A stretch of DNA of 64,000 nucleotides from Escherichia virus TH58, in the sequence record MT446423.1. One strand, 5' to 3'. Within the stretch, counting starts at the first letter, position 1, and every line of letters begins with the position of its first letter. A model generated the notes under the pieces. That model worked only from the letters and a program-made list of their open reading frames with translations, was not told the origin of the DNA and did no database searches. The position numbers were made by a program, and so were the translations under genes. Below, one piece after another: positions 2,087 to 45,631 of the stretch.

Positions 2087-3367
2087 TTCATCTATAATAA
2101 TTTTAGGCAATTTAACACCGAGTAAAACAGACAAGTCTGAACGTCCTGCCATTTTATCCATGTCCCCACCATCAATTATTCTCGCTTCTTTTTCGTCTTT
2201 TGCTACTGTGTAAGGATTTGCTGATAAAGCATATCTAACCAATAATCCGATAGACGGTTGCAAGCTTTCTGGATCAACTACAACTTTAAAAGCACCGACG
2301 TGTTCTGGGTCATCTAAATCTACTCCTTCAGTGTATGGAGCATAAAAGACAGACCCTACAATTTCTTTTTCGCCGAGATTTTCTACAACACCCACAATAA
2401 CATAATCTAATGGGCTGTTGGTATCGCAGTAAAGAGGTAATCCATTTGCCAAGAATCCATAAGCATTTTGTGAAAGATACTTGTCATCTTCTGGCTTATG
2501 TTTTAACCAACCAGAAGCAGCAAGAATAGCAGCTGCACGAGCTGAGGCTACACAAAACGTTGCAGTATAAGTTGTCTCTTTTTGAATGTGTGATACCATT
2601 TCGCATACCATTCGATATAACGAACGACCTGCTTCTGGAGCGGATGCATAGCTCAAGTCAATAAATCCAGTGTCAGTAATTCCAGTAACTTTATAGCGTT
2701 TCGATACAGTAATTAAAGACTGAAGAATATCTTTATTAATTTCATCAGCCATTTCAGTAGCAAGCAAATCTTCTAAGAAGTTAGGGGCATCAAATCCATT
2801 CGCTTCCAAATCTTGCGCTAATTCAACCGTGAGACCAGTTTTAAGTTTACGAGATTTGACTGAAGTTTGCCATTTATTAATCTGGAATCTTGCATCAGAA
2901 ATTTCGCTGCCAGAGCTTTCAAATTTGCTTGTTACCGCTGCATCTGAAAATAACCGTACCTTTAAATGAACGACTGCAATCTGAAGAGCTAATTCTAGAT
3001 CACTTTCTTGAATATCTGCAAATGGTGTATCTTCTAACACTTTATAGACGATATTATTATATTTGAAAAAATCGCCTTTATTTAGTGTGGCTTTTGATTC
3101 TTCTGTGAGCTCAGTAATTTTTTCTCGGTCTACATATCCAACTTCGCCTGCATAAGTAGCACCAGTTTTAAATGTGAATTCGTTATCTGGGTTAAGATAT
3201 TTGATACCATAAAAAGCAGCAACAGGCTGATTAGTTCTTTGTGTTGCTACAATGTCAGAATATATTAATTTAGTCGTAGCGCGAGTCAAAGCAACGAGAT
3301 TTGGGCGACCGATTGAGTTGCTGGTAGACGTTGTAGATTCACGCAATAATTTTTGGATTTTACTCAT
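2084..3367 (-). CDS. 24: head vertex protein gp24
   Basis: 427 aa, same length as T4 gp24; capsid-fold similarity to gp23; synteny. Confidence 0.9.
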   Translation of the reverse strand: MSKIQKLLRESTTSTSNSIGRPNLVALTRATTKLIYSDIVATQRTNQPVAAFYGIKYLNPDNEFTFKTGATYAGEVGYVDREKITELTEESKATLNKGDFFKYNNIVYKVLEDTPFADIQESDLELALQIAVVHLKVRLFSDAAVTSKFESSGSEISDARFQINKWQTSVKSRKLKTGLTVELAQDLEANGFDAPNFLEDLLATEMADEINKDILQSLITVSKRYKVTGITDTGFIDLSYASAPEAGRSLYRMVCEMVSHIQKETTYTATFCVASARAAAILAASGWLKHKPEDDKYLSQNAYGFLANGLPLYCDTNSPLDYVIVGVVENLGEKEIVGSVFYAPYTEGVDLDDPEHVGAFKVVVDPESLQPSIGLLVRYALSANPYTVAKDEKEARIIDGGDMDKMAGRSDLSVLLGVKLPKIIIDE

Positions 3368-3394
3368 TGCATTTTTTCCTTATGTGATATAGAT

Positions 3395-3402
3395 TATTTA
3401 TA
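3395..3402 (-). promoter_or_regulatory. late promoter TATAAATA for gene 24
   Basis: TATAAATA on minus strand about 30 nt upstream of gp24 ATG. Confidence 0.6.
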
Positions 3403-3408
3403 AAGATT

Positions 3409-3439
3409 GTTTACAACGTATTTGGTATGTGATACTATA
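3409..3439 (+). promoter_or_regulatory. early promoter cassette (GTTTAC-N17-TGTGATACTATAG)
   Basis: Member of the dispersed GTTTAC/TGnTAYWRTA family; 30 nt upstream of ORF 3469. Confidence 0.5.
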
Positions 3440-5381: not shown

Positions 5382-6194
5382 TTAGAAACGAGATGCGACT
5401 TTCGCATATAAACTTACATTAGAATTCTGTTCTACCTGAGTTGTGGTAGTGTCAACTGCTTCGGCAACAAAATTAAGACCGGCAGCGTCATTGTCAACTG
5501 TATTTATATTTTCGGTAATAGCGGCTTCTTCTTTAGTAGAACCTTTAACCATTTCTACAATAGCAGTTAACTTAGTACCAAATGCGTCAGAATAATCCAT
5601 ACCTTCAACCAGGCCAATAACTTTTTCTTTCTGAGATTCAGTCAGGTCTTTTACACTTTCATTAATAGCGGTTTCACGCTGAACGTAATTGATATATGCA
5701 TCACGTTTGGTAACTTCTTCGAACAAACGAGCGGTTTCTTCTTTATGTTCGGCCAGCTCTTCTTCCATTTCTGCTACAACATCTACAGATTCTTCTGGAA
5801 CGACAACGTTATGTTCAACAAACAGTTCTTTCAGACCACCAAGCATGGATTCGAACAAATCAGCTTTAATGCCTTTATCAACTGCGATTTGGTTTTCTGC
5901 GAGCCATTCTTTTGCAAGATGGTCTAGGAATTTAGAAGCTTGTTCAGCCAATTTTTTATCAGCTTTCTCTTCAGCATCTTCTTTAGCCTTTTCAACTTCT
6001 TCTTCAGCCTTTTCGGCGATGGCTTTGATATGAGATTCAGCCAGTTTGACTGCTTCCTGCTTAACGGTGGCTTCGAATACAGTGCTGAAATTAGCTTTAA
6101 CGTCCGGAGACAGTTCTACTGATTCGAAAACACTATTAAGAGCAACTGAAGTCTCGATGTTCTGAGCTTCTTTCAAAAGTTGTTCTTTGATCAT
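5382..6194 (-). CDS. 22: prohead core scaffolding protein gp22
   Basis: 270 aa, acidic coiled-coil-rich; position and size as T4 gp22. Confidence 0.8.
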   Translation of the reverse strand: MIKEQLLKEAQNIETSVALNSVFESVELSPDVKANFSTVFEATVKQEAVKLAESHIKAIAEKAEEEVEKAKEDAEEKADKKLAEQASKFLDHLAKEWLAENQIAVDKGIKADLFESMLGGLKELFVEHNVVVPEESVDVVAEMEEELAEHKEETARLFEEVTKRDAYINYVQRETAINESVKDLTESQKEKVIGLVEGMDYSDAFGTKLTAIVEMVKGSTKEEAAITENINTVDNDAAGLNFVAEAVDTTTTQVEQNSNVSLYAKVASRF

Positions 6195-40709: not shown

Positions 40710-41306
40710 ATGCGAAACCAAAATAATGATATTGACTCGATGTTCGAAGAGTTCCGAAATAAGGTAAATCCACCTACGTCTTTAGTTGATTCATTACGAT
40801 ATATTGCAACTGGACGTAAATGGTACTGGTCGTCTTCTTATGAGACAACTGAATATGCAAATAACCGAAAATCTTTATTAGCCCCAGGTATTATGATTCA
40901 TGATATCGGAGCTATTGCTAAACTAGTTGCAGACCATGATATTAGATTCACTGATTTCGTTGCTCCTACGTGGTCTGTTTGTTGTTTAAACACTGAATGG
41001 GACTATATCAGTGAACGCTCTGAAGATTATTATGGTTTTAGAGATAAGCTCTTAAGGTCTAACATGTTTTATATCGATACTGAAGTCCTAGTCGATAATA
41101 AAAAATATTACTTTACGTTAATCGTCGATTCTGAAACTATGTATGAAGGCAAGCCTTTGCTTAAAAGAGTTGATGCTTTAAGTGCTATTGATGCGCTTTA
41201 TGAAACTATGGTTGTTAGTCCTAATTTCACTAACAATTTAATCCTTGAGCAATTTATTATGGAATGTAGAGAATATGTCAAAGCCAACCCTATACATGCC
41301 AAGTAA
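40710..41306 (+). CDS. hypothetical protein ending in FIMECR motif
   Basis: AAGGAG RBS then ATG 40710; 198 aa. Confidence 0.45.
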   Translation: MRNQNNDIDSMFEEFRNKVNPPTSLVDSLRYIATGRKWYWSSSYETTEYANNRKSLLAPGIMIHDIGAIAKLVADHDIRFTDFVAPTWSVCCLNTEWDYISERSEDYYGFRDKLLRSNMFYIDTEVLVDNKKYYFTLIVDSETMYEGKPLLKRVDALSAIDALYETMVVSPNFTNNLILEQFIMECREYVKANPIHAK

Positions 41307-41670
41307 GCCCTGGGCATACGAATACAAACGTAAATTAATTCCTAATGAAGTGTTGTTTGGTCCTATTTTAGCTTTAGCATTTTTAATCTTTATGATTATA
41401 GGAGCTATTTTAGATTCCAATAAAGTTATATCGTCTGATGCAGTGTTTTTACTTATTATAGTCGGGTCGTTTATTGTACCATTTTTATTAATGCCTATTA
41501 ACTGGGTGGGATATTGGTACCAAGGACGTCATCATAGAGCCCGATTAAGAGAATGGAAAGTTCAGTGCGCAAAAGCCCAAGCTCAGTATGACGAAGCTGT
41601 TAAAAAGTATGAATATGAAGAAGCTATGGAATTCGTTAAGGAAATAAGATGCAAAAGCCTCAACTCTTAA
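41275..41670 (+). CDS. small membrane protein ending in FVKEIRCK motif
   Basis: About 131 aa with two TM segments. Confidence 0.45.
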   Translation: MSKPTLYMPSKPWAYEYKRKLIPNEVLFGPILALAFLIFMIIGAILDSNKVISSDAVFLLIIVGSFIVPFLLMPINWVGYWYQGRHHRARLREWKVQCAKAQAQYDEAVKKYEYEEAMEFVKEIRCKSLNS

Positions 41671-42008
41671 CCGTATGGCCTTCTCTTGGTGAGAACATTC
41701 TAATTTTTATTATGAGTATTGGCATGGGATTTGCCTTTGGACTAGTTGGATTTCTTATTGACGGTGTTGTGTTAGGATTTATAGGGAACACCGGTGGATT
41801 CACAGACCAATGGCAGGACTTACGGTATACCCAAGCCTTTGCATCCATCGCATCCTTTTGTACTGTAGTCTATTTTTACTATGATTTTATAAGCCATAAC
41901 AAGAAAAATAAAAAGGTTTACGCTTCTCAAATGATTAGTTATAATGAACTCCTAGCTAGACGTGAAAATGAAACAATAGAAAACTTTATTAAGGAATGTA
42001 GAAAATGA
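41649..42008 (+). CDS. small membrane protein ending in NFIKECRK
   Basis: 119 aa with two TM segments. Confidence 0.45.
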   Translation: MQKPQLLTVWPSLGENILIFIMSIGMGFAFGLVGFLIDGVVLGFIGNTGGFTDQWQDLRYTQAFASIASFCTVVYFYYDFISHNKKNKKVYASQMISYNELLARRENETIENFIKECRK

Positions 42009-42310
42009 GTAAGATTATTGAAATTAAAGTACCAGAGTTTAATGATGCCAAATCCGCTTCAGATGCAATTTATAAACTTCTGAATCAAGCTGAACGTATC
42101 GAAGAAGAGGCAACAAAGATCGCAGACCAATACGCCGTATCATTTTCTGTAGGTGATTATGGTAGCGGTCGTACTTATTATCCTAAGGGTGAAATCGTAT
42201 CCCAGTGGATGAAAGATGAAATTGAAAATAATGGTGGCGATGTTAAGCGTGAAGGTAATGGTTACGTTATTACTGAAGGTGCTTGGGTTTCGTCTTCTGC
42301 GTTGTGCTAA
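42005..42310 (+). CDS. paralog 1 of tandem trio (C-terminus GAWVSSSALC)
   Basis: 101 aa. Confidence 0.45.
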   Translation: MSKIIEIKVPEFNDAKSASDAIYKLLNQAERIEEEATKIADQYAVSFSVGDYGSGRTYYPKGEIVSQWMKDEIENNGGDVKREGNGYVITEGAWVSSSALC

Positions 42311-42321
42311 GGGGAATCATT

Positions 42322-42594
42322 ATGTCTAAAGAACAAACCGAACTGGCTGAAGCTGTAGCAAAAATCTATGCAGCTATTGAGGCTGCCAAAGAAATTGCTG
42401 ATAAACAAAACACAACATTCGACTTGTGTCCAGCTTATGGTATGGGCGGAACCTATCATTCACCCGGACAACTTAAAGCCGATCTTGAACGTTGTACAAA
42501 AAACGGCTATGCTGAATGGGCTGACGTTTACCAATACGACTACAATCTGAGCCTCGAAACTGGTGGTTGGATTGCATCTTCTCACACTTGTTAA
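42322..42594 (+). CDS. paralog 2 of tandem trio (C-terminus GGWIASSHTC)
   Basis: About 90 aa. Confidence 0.45.
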   Translation: MSKEQTELAEAVAKIYAAIEAAKEIADKQNTTFDLCPAYGMGGTYHSPGQLKADLERCTKNGYAEWADVYQYDYNLSLETGGWIASSHTC

Positions 42595-42603
42595 GGAAAC
42601 CAT

Positions 42604-42801
42604 ATGTCTCGTGAATTAGATTGTGCTGTACGTACGGCAGTAGCTGCTCTGGAAAACCTGTTCCAAATTGCAACAGAAGAACGCGAAGAAGTTACATTAT
42701 GGATTGAAGATAACGCAGGTCTGAATCTCCAGAACGCAATCTCGGTATCAAATAATAGTATTACTGTTCAAGGCTGGGTATCATCTAGTTATTCTTGCTA
42801 A
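42604..42801 (+). CDS. paralog 3 of tandem trio (C-terminus QGWVSSSYSC)
   Basis: 65 aa. Confidence 0.45.
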   Translation: MSRELDCAVRTAVAALENLFQIATEEREEVTLWIEDNAGLNLQNAISVSNNSITVQGWVSSSYSC

Positions 42802-42805
42802 AACA

Positions 42806-42836
42806 GTTTACAACAAGATAGGGCTATGTTATAGTA
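42806..42836 (+). promoter_or_regulatory. early promoter cassette (GTTTAC ... TGTTATAGTA) with inverted repeat
   Basis: GATAGGGCT / AGTCCTATC arms around the -10. Confidence 0.5.
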
Positions 42837-42863
42837 GTCCTATCAAATTAAATGGAGTCCACA

Positions 42864-43103
42864 ATGATTTATTACGAAAGTGTTGGAACCAAAGTGGTTG
42901 GTAAAACCATTACTCGTGAAAAGTTTGCTAAGATATTCGATATGCGTTATAAAAAATCTGAACACAAAGGCATTCGATTCGAAGATGCGCACTGTACAAT
43001 TTGCCCTTATAATGAAGACATAAATGGTACAATCGTTCCATTGGTAGAGGCTTCACACGATGACCTCTGGGATGAATATGATATCGCATGTCGTGAAATT
43101 TAA
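42864..43103 (+). CDS. hypothetical protein
   Basis: GGAG RBS then ATG 42864; about 79 aa. Confidence 0.4.
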   Translation: MIYYESVGTKVVGKTITREKFAKIFDMRYKKSEHKGIRFEDAHCTICPYNEDINGTIVPLVEASHDDLWDEYDIACREI

Positions 43104-43131: not shown

Positions 43132-44088
43132 ATGATGTTAGTTATTGGTTCTCGTGCACTTCACTATCACGGTCTTATTGATTCTAATGCTATCAAAAAT
43201 AGTGACTGGGACTTTATTGCAGACCAAGGTTCTTGGAATGCATTTAAAAATCAAATGATGGGTGTATATGTTCATCAAGATAACCCTGATGTCCAAGTTT
43301 TCAAATGCTTCCATAACGGACGCGAAACTCATTTTGAAGCATATATTGTTCCGGCAATCACTAATGTCCGTGAATTAGTAGGTGAACTCACTCCTGAAGA
43401 TTTCACGTCTTCTTATGACCTTTTAAAATACGCCAAGAAAAATTTGTCTAAAGATCATTTGAACGGGTTTTACTGGGCAACTCCTGAGATGTGTCTTGCA
43501 ATTAAGATGTCTCATCGTTTCAAGAAAAATAATCCATTCTTTTTAAAGACTATGAACCATATTCAGTATCTTCGTGGTAAAGGTGTTACACTGAACGATG
43601 AACTTACTGAAATTATGCTGAAACGCCAGAAAGAAACCTTGAACTATGCTCACCCAGTTCTTGACACTTCTAAAAGTGCGTTCTTTAAAGATGACATCTA
43701 TACTTATGACCATGATACTATTCATGAAGCCATTGCACTAACAGACCGTCCAGCGTATACATTTTATATGAAAGACGGTTCTGAAGTCATGACCTCACGT
43801 GAGAAGTTCGAATCATTACCAGAAATGGTCAAATTGGCCGGTGTATATGAAGAATCATGTGTACTAGCATTAGAACGTTCTCAGATTCCTAATGACTTTA
43901 AAATTAACCCTGAAGCCAGTTTTATGATGGCATTGGAAAAAGTCTGTACAAGCATCACCTCCGGTTGGTTCCGTGAGTACGCATACGAGAACTATTATGA
44001 AGTAGTGGCTATGTATCATAAGCTCGGCAAAAATGATTACGTCAAACGTTTCAAACAAAATTTCCATATGGTAAAACCTTTCAAATAG
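43132..44088 (+). CDS. hypothetical protein, possible nucleotidyltransferase fold
   Basis: 318 aa; N-terminal VIGSRAL...SDWDFI loosely resembles a GS...DxD motif. Confidence 0.4.
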   Translation: MMLVIGSRALHYHGLIDSNAIKNSDWDFIADQGSWNAFKNQMMGVYVHQDNPDVQVFKCFHNGRETHFEAYIVPAITNVRELVGELTPEDFTSSYDLLKYAKKNLSKDHLNGFYWATPEMCLAIKMSHRFKKNNPFFLKTMNHIQYLRGKGVTLNDELTEIMLKRQKETLNYAHPVLDTSKSAFFKDDIYTYDHDTIHEAIALTDRPAYTFYMKDGSEVMTSREKFESLPEMVKLAGVYEESCVLALERSQIPNDFKINPEASFMMALEKVCTSITSGWFREYAYENYYEVVAMYHKLGKNDYVKRFKQNFHMVKPFK

Positions 44089-44158: not shown

Positions 44159-44464
44159 ATGAAATTAGGCGAAACCAACCGAATTGGTCTTTTAACAATA
44201 TTTGCATCACCTTTTTACGCAGCTCTTTCTGTTGCAGTATTACAAAAGGCTTACGATATGGATGGTGTTCCTGGTTTTGTATTCTTATCGCCGTTTTTGC
44301 TATTCGTTGGAGCATTGTTATTATATGCCACGACTAGTTTCGACCATAATGTCTGGGTCAATTATAAATGTAAATTGTCTGAAGAAGAACACGCGGAAGC
44401 TCGTAAAAAAGCTATTGAATCTACCAATCTAGAAAATTTCATTAAAGAATGTCGAGGAAAATAA
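44159..44464 (+). CDS. small membrane protein ending in NFIKECRGK
   Basis: 101 aa with two TM segments. Confidence 0.45.
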   Translation: MKLGETNRIGLLTIFASPFYAALSVAVLQKAYDMDGVPGFVFLSPFLLFVGALLLYATTSFDHNVWVNYKCKLSEEEHAEARKKAIESTNLENFIKECRGK

Positions 44465-44465
44465 T

Positions 44466-45152
44466 ATGAATAGTTCTAAAGTGTTTAATAGTCAAGCTCG
44501 TGCAGTAGGTGGTTTTGCTCATGCGATTAAAAACGACCAGATTAAAAACGAGCCTATGTTCTTTAACTGTGATTTGAATTTTGCTTTTGATAATGGCGGC
44601 CCAATTACTCGTAGCTTTATCCAAAATCTTCCCGACGATTGGAAAGACTCGGATGTAGTATTTGATTCACGAGTTCACATGCTGATGCCTGGTTGGTATC
44701 CTGCTATTCCTGGATATCACCATGATGATGTTCCTCGCCCTGATATTCCAGTTGGTCAACACTTTATTACTGCAGGACAACCTGATTATGACAACCCTCG
44801 TTACCATTCTGAACATATTCTTGGTCTTGTTAACGCTGATGTGTGTCCTACTCATTTTGCAACAGGAACTGCAGAGTTCAGTCAGATTCCTGATGGCGAA
44901 CTTATCTATCGCCAGTGGCACAAAGAAGTCCTCGAAAAAATCGAAAAAGGCGAACTAGAGAAATGGGAAGCTCCAGATCATACTCTTCTTCAGTTTGATT
45001 GGCAAACATGGCACACTGGTTCTCGTGCAATTAGTAATGGATGGCGTTGGTTCGGCCGTGTATCTCGTAATACAGACCGAGTTAAAAAGATTACCAATGA
45101 AATTCGTGTCAACGCTCAAGTTTATCTGGAATTCCCTATGGAAGGCTGGTAA
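44466..45152 (+). CDS. hypothetical protein (weak HxD...H pattern)
   Basis: 228 aa; YHHDD and WHTGSR motifs. Confidence 0.4.
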   Translation: MNSSKVFNSQARAVGGFAHAIKNDQIKNEPMFFNCDLNFAFDNGGPITRSFIQNLPDDWKDSDVVFDSRVHMLMPGWYPAIPGYHHDDVPRPDIPVGQHFITAGQPDYDNPRYHSEHILGLVNADVCPTHFATGTAEFSQIPDGELIYRQWHKEVLEKIEKGELEKWEAPDHTLLQFDWQTWHTGSRAISNGWRWFGRVSRNTDRVKKITNEIRVNAQVYLEFPMEGW

Positions 45153-45631
45153 TGATTAACAATAATATAGACGATGGCAATGAAGGTATTTCATACTATT
45201 CAGTAGATTGGACAGGATGTCCATCCTACTTAGTGAAACATATTTGCCAAGAATTTAAAATCGACCAGCCAGCAGGTATTATCGTGAACAGATACATTAA
45301 TGGATATCAACCTATCGATGAAGTAATACGAACAACTCAAGCTGAGCTTGAAAGGTTTTTCAATAAGTGCCAATGGATAACAGGATGGATTATATTTGTA
45401 CCATCTATATGGTTTTTCAGTACTAAGGTGAGTTCTTTCGGTTTTGTTGATATTATTGCTATCTTATTAGCATCTAGTATCATAAGTGTTGTTGGTGGCA
45501 TCATCGGCGGCGGTACCGCCGCCATCATTATTAATCTTATTAAAAGTAGTTTACAAGAACATAAAGACAAGATAAAGGCCAAGAATAATGAAGTTGAACG
45601 TTTTATTACCGAATGCAGGAATTTGAGATGA
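45152..45631 (+). CDS. membrane protein ending in RFITECRNLR
   Basis: 159 aa with glycine-rich TM segment. Confidence 0.45.
   Translation: MINNNIDDGNEGISYYSVDWTGCPSYLVKHICQEFKIDQPAGIIVNRYINGYQPIDEVIRTTQAELERFFNKCQWITGWIIFVPSIWFFSTKVSSFGFVDIIAILLASSIISVVGGIIGGGTAAIIINLIKSSLQEHKDKIKAKNNEVERFITECRNLR

Follow-up and report, generated by a model that had tools for sequence, protein, structure and literature searches.

Small acidic phage proteins with a common C-terminal tail are encoded beside a nucleotidyltransferase-fold protein in an RB69-like phage and its relatives

Three small genes in the e.3-e.2 region

The window considered here is a stretch of 64,000 nucleotides of Escherichia virus TH58 (MT446423.1), an RB69-like Mosigvirus, in which the 1.6 kb between positions 41600 and 43200 are 97-98% identical to RB69, HX01, JS09, and many other records. 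This region belongs to the plastic e.3-e.2 stretch of T4-like genomes and contains three consecutive genes without named T4 counterparts, all on the plus strand and each encoding a small acidic protein. ORF1 (42005..42310; 101 aa; type A) ends with EGAWVSSSALC and corresponds to RB69ORF139c and RB69ORF138c, ORF2 (42322..42594; 90 aa; type B) ends with TGGWIASSHTC and corresponds to RB69ORF137c, and ORF3 (42604..42801; 65 aa; type C) ends with QGWVSSSYSC and corresponds to RB69ORF136c. The sizes, coordinates, and endings of these three ORFs, as given in a preliminary description made from the sequence alone, were all confirmed. The genes are tightly packed: the start codon of ORF1 overlaps the stop codon of e.3 (ATGA), gaps are of 9-11 nt, and a good Shine-Dalgarno sequence precedes each ORF, such as AAGGGGA ahead of the ATG of ORF2.

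ORF1 is intact in most Mosigvirus records. In the RB69 reference (positions 5406-5712 of locus L001), it is split by a frameshift into ORF139c and ORF138c, and its tail carries a Ser to Pro replacement (WVSSPALC). ORF2 appears as two BLAST pieces in ST0, mar005P1, and ECCR664, suggesting a frameshift there as well. Because of these interruptions, the genes of the trio are suggested to be dispensable in laboratory culture.

Scans of the three ORFs against Pfam, NCBIfam, and PADLOC gave no match above threshold, and sequence and profile searches of the PDB with the small family returned coiled-coil noise, with no meaningful match. T4-type internal head proteins, the genes of which are found nearby in RB69, were considered and set aside, as the capsid-targeting N-terminus of such proteins was absent on reading of the sequences.

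A conserved C-terminal tail

The common tail spans W94-V-S-S-S-A-L-C101 in ORF1 (42284..42307), W83-I-A-S-S-H-T-C90 in ORF2 (42568..42591), and W58-V-S-S-S-Y-S-C65 in ORF3 (42775..42798), always on the plus strand, and no other ORF of at least 30 aa carries such a tail on either strand of the whole 64-kb window. The codons used for Ser vary between tails (TCG, TCT, TCA, or AGT) and no DNA repeat was found to cover them, so that conservation occurs at the protein level and a DNA- or RNA-level cause was ruled out. A second motif common to ORF1 and ORF2 had also been proposed, and it is real: the loop motif Y-G-x-G-x-T-Y-Y-P-x-G is represented by YGSGRTYYPKG in ORF1 (aa 52-62; 42158..42190, plus strand) and by YGMGGTYHSPG in ORF2 (aa 39-49; 42436-42468, plus strand). 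Absent from ORF3, this motif corresponds to the family consensus YGxGxTYxP in an alignment of 140 sequences and is placed in a beta-hairpin of the ORF2 structure model. This AF2 model (pLDDT 88.8) predicts a helix at residues 3-29, a hairpin at 32-46, helices at 48-72, and a strand at 81-85 that contains the Trp.

Among 303 distinct sequences, 256 end with W-x-x-S-S-x-x-C and 38 with W-x-x-S-[SN]-C, the Ser frequencies in this set being partly circular because the regular expression used for the tail fixes both Ser positions. Unbiased support for the tail is provided by an HMM search, by the tails of the representatives it retrieved (see below), and by the 140-sequence alignment, in which W83 and S86 (ORF2 numbering) never vary and the conservation of S87 and C90 reaches at least 90%, with an overall column identity of 13%. 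A Gly is found two residues ahead of the Trp in 152 of the 256 W-x-x-S-S-x-x-C proteins. The 303 sequences have a median net charge of -8 (-6 for ORF1), and the motif occurs a second time, internally, in 46 of them. In 130 of the 303, ORF1 included, there is no Cys other than the terminal one, which rules out an intramolecular disulfide or a metal cluster as a general explanation for the tail. The Ser pair and the Cys are separated by 0-3 residues, and in about 8% of the representatives the Cys is followed by one or two more; both features are awkward for any strict terminal-Cys chemistry.

Breadth of the small-protein family

In related phages, the array comprises up to five types, namely the three types of the trio, a fourth type ending with GFWYSSSMxxC, and a fifth type that combines an internal DW(L/N)NSSCYGEE motif with a terminal W-x-P-S-S-C. 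When 1.84 billion representative proteins were searched exhaustively with an HMM (E up to 1e-3), 126 representatives of clusters at 50% identity were retrieved, all of 64-175 aa. The strict tail motif was found at the end of 110 of the 120 new representatives, and most of the others had one or two residues past the Cys. Tail-bearing proteins were grouped into a class of ca. 60-140 aa, ending with W-x-x-S-[S/T/N]-x(0-3)-C and encoded ahead of a DUF7275 gene on its strand, at a distance of up to about 3.5 kb (see below). All three ORFs of the trio have this tail and this position. The trio is an ordinary member of this uncharacterised class of small proteins, which is strongly acidic, widespread, and restricted to phages.

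Existing annotations of the family are uneven. In JS98, an intact fourth paralog of 69 aa ending with GFWFSSSMSC (positions 3208-3417 of locus L003) is unannotated in NC_010105. Members in MZ571829 (Klebsiella phage VAC36), NC_018855 (HX01), MW250787, and MW233709 (UPEC07/UPEC01) are labelled prohead assembly scaffold, major capsid, or tail completion protein. Given the size of these proteins and the family they belong to, such labels look like annotation-transfer errors.

Paralogy, age, and selection

BLASTP analyses aligned ORF1 and ORF2 over 54 residues (E 2e-4), and hhalign comparison of their orthologue sets extended over 78 columns with a probability of 98% (E 1.2e-13). Both proteins also match phrog_899, a family of unknown function, over its C-terminal 75-90 profile positions (E 1.3e-22 for ORF1 and 1.1e-17 for ORF2). 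By these comparisons, ORF1 and ORF2 are true homologues well beyond the tail, and more generally types A, B, and D are mutually related (hhalign probability 97-98%, E 1e-10 to 1e-13). ORF3 has no match to phrog_899 and falls in phrog_4882 (E 1.6e-36). When compared with a profile of 110 sequences of the other types, it aligned over its last 15 residues only (hhalign 92%), and this probability fell to 3% once the last 10 residues were trimmed. ORF3 shares with the other types the tail and a general layout, with an N-terminal helix followed by strands; by sequence statistics, its likeness to ORF1 and ORF2 is limited to the tail. The earlier view of the trio as three divergent paralogs is thus supported for ORF1 and ORF2 and not for ORF3, the detectable similarity of which does not extend past the tail.

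Within Mosigvirus, the dN/dS ratio is 0-0.17 for the trio genes versus 0.14 for the neighbouring enzyme gene, and all three ORFs are under purifying selection. Between Mosigvirus and Dhakavirus, identity within each paralog type is 51-66%, and up to five of the types are found again in T4-like, rV5-like, Pseudomonas, Acinetobacter, and jumbo phages. As orthologues of every type exist in phage groups that are distant from one another, the duplication is ancient. The preliminary description had anticipated variation in copy number among related phages, which does occur, with 1 to 5 copies per phage. It had also proposed fast divergence under host-interaction selection, a proposal that finds no support, given ratios on a par with that of the enzyme and the old age of the duplication. 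In the strongest form of this idea, the genes would be recent tandem duplicates undergoing fast arms-race divergence, with no further system attached. Their tandem arrangement, the 1 to 5 copies, the plasticity of the e.2-e.3 region, and the occasional frameshifts that show dispensability (RB69 ORF1; ORF2 in the three phages named above) would all fit such a scenario. However, the dN/dS values and the outcome of tail trimming largely refute it: ORF3 is not demonstrably a duplicate of ORF1 or ORF2, and the same paralog types are found in Aeromonas, Phapecoctavirus, and Acinetobacter phages. We therefore regard recent duplication alone as very improbable.

The neighbouring DUF7277+DUF7275 protein

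The gene at 43132..44088 (plus strand) encodes a 318-aa protein, the counterpart of RB69ORF134c, with Pfam matches to DUF7277 (E 1e-27) and DUF7275 (E 1e-77). The proteins encoded at this place, downstream of the small genes, in other phages have 300-330 aa. Even at E values up to 1, Pfam searches returned nothing besides these two domains, hence no DUF1814; NCBIfam and PADLOC gave no match, and sequence and profile searches identified no sequence-level relative in the PDB. The structure model is confident and adopts a Pol-beta-type nucleotidyltransferase fold with an invariant GS...DxD...E signature. Among its fold neighbours, the MenT1 toxin scored 10.1, ANT(2'') 8.6, TglT/MenT3 8.5, MenT4 7.6, and LnuA 7.1. 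In 46 diverse homologues, G6, S7, D25, D27, and E69 are invariant, as are many residues of the helical C-terminal domain, including K125, H128, H194-D195, H198, C243, and C272. This degree of conservation argues that the protein is probably an active nucleotidyltransferase.

The enzyme family was found in 733 of 50,697 deposited phage genomes, and its proteins form over 2,100 clusters at 90% identity. A full-text literature search found no mention of RB69ORF134c, RB69ORF137c, DUF7275, DUF7277, or the PHROG identifiers. The RB69 nucleotidyltransferase of PMC13326640 is a different gene (RB69p052/53). Distant homologues of the enzyme (ca. 250-300 aa) were observed near a polynucleotide kinase gene in Streptomyces phage BillNye, near RNA ligase 2 with a metallophosphoesterase in DSS3_VP1, and near a tRNA gene array in Gordonia phage WilliamBoone (loci L096, L100, and L097, respectively), and none of the three has a tail-bearing partner. 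These neighbours hint at an RNA-, RNA-end-, or tRNA-related role of the family.

Linkage between the small genes and the enzyme gene

The main point of interest at this locus is the linkage of the small genes to the nucleotidyltransferase gene, which starts 331 nt after the end of the trio in the window and lies outside the coordinates initially described. This linkage was assessed in 80 IMG/VR loci picked solely via the enzyme (40-95% identical to that of the window), with the tail counted as W-x-x-S-[SN]-x(0-3)-C at the end of an ORF. These loci contain 205 tail-bearing ORFs (41-139 aa), all of which occupy the strand of the enzyme at 45-3341 nt upstream of its gene. No ORF with the tail motif was found downstream of the enzyme in the 80 loci, nor among their 1155 ORFs on the opposite strand. 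One to five copies occur in 73 loci, and two more loci have the variants NWDSSTC and NWDGSSC, giving tail-bearing ORFs in 75 of the 80 loci when variants are included; the remaining five have none. In the reverse direction, look-ups were made from six single remote representatives of the small proteins, five of which have the enzyme gene or its N-terminus 10-250 nt downstream; for the sixth, no enzyme gene was found in the 1.7 kb that separate the small gene from the contig end.

The pairing recurs on phage backbones that are unrelated, namely in Tevenvirinae, Aeromonas Biquartavirus and Ceceduovirus, Phapecoctavirus, Otagovirus, an Erwinia jumbo phage, and the Acinetobacter T4-like phages of Lazarusvirus. 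In Xanthomonas phage BUDD, the partner is located downstream of the enzyme instead. Relatives of ORF1 and of the enzyme occur in similar numbers in the phage collection, with 252 versus 259 in Escherichia, 59 versus 59 in Aeromonas, 34 versus 35 in Klebsiella, 34 versus 36 in Enterobacter, and 18 versus 18 in Shigella phages. No tail-bearing partner was found beside the ca. 250-aa enzyme homologues of Streptomyces and Gordonia phages (actinophages) and of KVP40 phages; together with the five loci devoid of partners, these homologues indicate that the enzyme may also occur by itself. A search of 185,579 species genomes of bacteria and archaea detected the enzyme in only five MAG contigs, all of which look like phage and have tail-bearing ORFs just upstream of the enzyme. 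The module is thus a phage property, essentially absent from bacterial genomes, and an origin in bacteria or in a defence island was ruled out on the basis of these five contigs.

Two promoter-like sites, identified by consensus match only, frame the trio on the plus strand. The first (TTTACG-17-TATAAT; 41917..41945) lies inside e.3, upstream of the trio, and its equivalent is annotated in SA35RD as a T4-type middle promoter. The second (TTTACA-17-TG-TATAGT; 42807..42835) lies between the trio and the ORF135c-enzyme pair, where the SA35RD annotation has a terminator. Because this promoter-like site and the annotated terminator separate the trio from the enzyme, the trio and the ORF135c-enzyme pair are possibly transcribed separately, and the signals suggest early or middle expression. 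The intervening gene (42852..43103, plus strand) encodes an 83-aa homologue of ORF135c (phrog_3723) that carries a conserved RFEDAHC..PY.E stretch. It was found in Tevenvirinae only, in 12 of the 80 loci, where it invariably follows the tail-bearing genes and lies 210-450 nt ahead of the enzyme gene; it is a possible member of the module.

These observations bear on the possibility that the tail functions independently of the enzyme, for instance by docking onto a target in the host, by signalling degradation or localisation, or by bridging subunits through a metal or a disulfide, the synteny then reflecting a co-transferred gene block. The presence of a promoter-like signal ahead of the trio and of another ahead of the enzyme would be compatible with this scenario, as would the few lineages in which the enzyme has no partner. 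The acidic bodies also resemble those of known decoy-type phage proteins, in composition only; no fold similarity was found to the DNA-mimic anti-restriction proteins Ocr, ArdA, and Arn. Against this, the linkage holds in both directions and is kept where other flanking genes differ, since e.3 homologues are found in 10 and ORF133c in one of the 80 loci, compared with 75 for tail-bearing ORFs (ORF132c occurs in 23). An enzyme-independent function of the tail fits the synteny poorly and appears unlikely.

A proposed role for the tail

The analyses above establish the family and its tail, assign the enzyme to a fold class, and demonstrate that the genes are linked in both directions. Beyond this, we infer a physical interaction between the two partners, with the tail as the contact point, and the chemistry involved. 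Our preferred reading, to which we assign a probability of roughly one half, is that the small proteins act together with the downstream nucleotidyltransferase, which would recognise the tail most likely as a Ser acceptor. Each small protein would consist of an N-terminal helix packed on a small beta-sheet, the last strand of which carries the invariant Trp and leads into a short, exposed C-terminal tail, S-S-(x)0-3-Cys. The common tail would be the element seen by the enzyme, the variable bodies setting the paralogs apart. Upon entry of the tail into the active site, a Ser would be nucleotidylylated or phosphorylated. The occurrence of several bodies with the same tail beside a single enzyme suggests a pattern of one enzyme acting on several substrates. 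The module would be expressed early or in mid-infection and might fulfil an accessory function in host takeover or counter-defence.

An acceptor or pseudo-acceptor tail is favoured by the chemistry of the fold neighbourhood, where enzymes transfer NMP to hydroxyl groups. MenT-type enzymes perform such transfers and can phosphorylate Ser or Thr (PMC11375011), whilst AMPylation of a partner protein is known for MNT enzymes (PMC7641770); both precedents favour the acceptor tail. The type VII system HEPN-MNT (HepT-MntA), in which a small neighbouring protein is covalently nucleotidylylated close to the C-terminus by a minimal nucleotidyltransferase (PMC7641770), provides a precedent for the position of the acceptor. 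However, the candidate acceptor would here be a Ser rather than a Tyr, the enzyme far exceeds MNT in size, and sequence reading found no HEPN Rx4-6H motif in the trio, ORF1 and ORF3 having no His and ORF2 no R-x(4-6)-H. The O-nucleotidyltransferases ANT(2'') and LnuA differ further, as they use small-molecule substrates (aminoglycosides and lincosamides, respectively) and have neither partner proteins nor a phage context.

In the main rival reading, the small proteins would regulate or inhibit a MenT-like enzyme in the manner of antitoxins, and would not be its substrates. Binding through the helix, or through the tail plugging the active site as a pseudo-substrate, or both, would then restrain or time the activity. 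Here, the resemblance is to MenA1-MenT1 and AbiEi-AbiEii, in which a nucleotidyltransferase is associated with a small partner, the phage enzyme having the Pol-beta fold and the GS...DxD motifs; MenA1 is itself a small helical regulator of MenT1, of antitoxin type and 7.4 kDa (PMC11375011, PMC10435456). Yet the phage enzyme differs from those of MenAT and AbiE by its DUF7277+DUF7275 architecture, the lack of DUF1814, and about 130 extra helical residues, and the module is restricted to phages instead of being chromosomal. One enzyme has 1-5 partners here instead of one, and up to five different antitoxins for one enzyme would be unusual. The partners end with W-x-x-S-S-x-x-C, a tail that MenA1 is not known to have. 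The small proteins have no significant sequence or fold match to any antitoxin, and no antitoxin of MenA or AbiEi type (COG5340) was found among them. Finally, some enzyme lineages have no partner at all, and a lytic phage has little need of toxin neutralisation. With these points on either side, the antitoxin-like reading is a tentative second choice behind the acceptor reading.

Returning to the tail as an acceptor, several paralogous small genes placed directly upstream of a single enzyme gene are reminiscent of RiPP clusters. In these clusters, arrays of precursor-peptide genes accompany one modifying enzyme, as with the prochlorosin ProcA genes and ProcM, and motifs of the Ser-Ser-x-x-Cys type give lanthionine rings after activation of the Ser by phosphorylation. 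Compared with RiPP precursors, the pattern is inverted here, with a conserved C-terminal "core" and a variable body, and this body is a confidently folded domain, as judged from the ORF2 model. No Pfam or NCBIfam domain of the LanB, LanC, LanM, LanKC, LanL, or YcaO type was found in neighbouring ORFs. A more speculative version of the proposal, to which we give rather low credence, is that the enzyme nucleotidylylates or phosphorylates a Ser of the W-x-x-S-S tail on these folded acidic proteins, perhaps with a subsequent elimination step and an attack of the terminal Cys that would close a small thioether ring. If true, this would be a phage-specific covalent modification of the C-terminus that arms up to five effector bodies, extending a RiPP-like logic of one enzyme and tandem substrates to whole proteins, driven by a nucleotidyltransferase of MenT/ANT type.

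Overall, the data point to a phage module with no published function, in which a nucleotidyltransferase is accompanied by small partners that fall outside the criteria of both MenAT/AbiE and HEPN-MNT. The phages that encode the enzyme comprise therapy-relevant ones, of T4-like and rV5-like kinds, that infect E. coli, Klebsiella, Acinetobacter, Aeromonas, and Pseudomonas. The strict two-way linkage and the invariant tail of seven to nine residues offer a sharply testable hypothesis, with a binding or acceptor peptide on one side and a candidate enzyme on the other. Should the enzyme act on tRNA ends, like MenT, or modify proteins, like MNT, the module would represent a new mechanism of host takeover or counter-defence in phages.

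Other genes flanking the module

Downstream of the enzyme, the gene at 44466-45152 encodes a 228-aa homologue of RB69ORF132c (phrog_1843) without Pfam match. In the 23 loci where it occurs, ORF132c is found 0.9-2.9 kb downstream of the enzyme, including the distant loci L044 and L046, in which the enzyme is only ca. 45% identical to that of the window. The rV5-like phages phiWec179 and tuntematon have genes of 684-687 nt at the same relative position, matched by length and position alone. ORF132c might be an additional part of the module, present facultatively as a third component.

A second C-terminal motif, F-(I/V)-x-E-(C/I)-R with 1-13 further residues after it, was observed in five neighbouring ORFs, several of which are predicted membrane proteins: e.5 (40710-41306), e.4 (41275-41670), e.3 (41649-42008), ORF133c (44159-44464), and e.2 (45152-45631). 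Examples of these endings are NFIKECRK, NFIKECRGK, RFITECRNLR, and QFIMECREY.., and they recur in the equivalent genes of JS98, Klebsiella F48, IME523, and PEi20. This second gene set flanks the set with the W-x-x-S-S-x-x-C tail.
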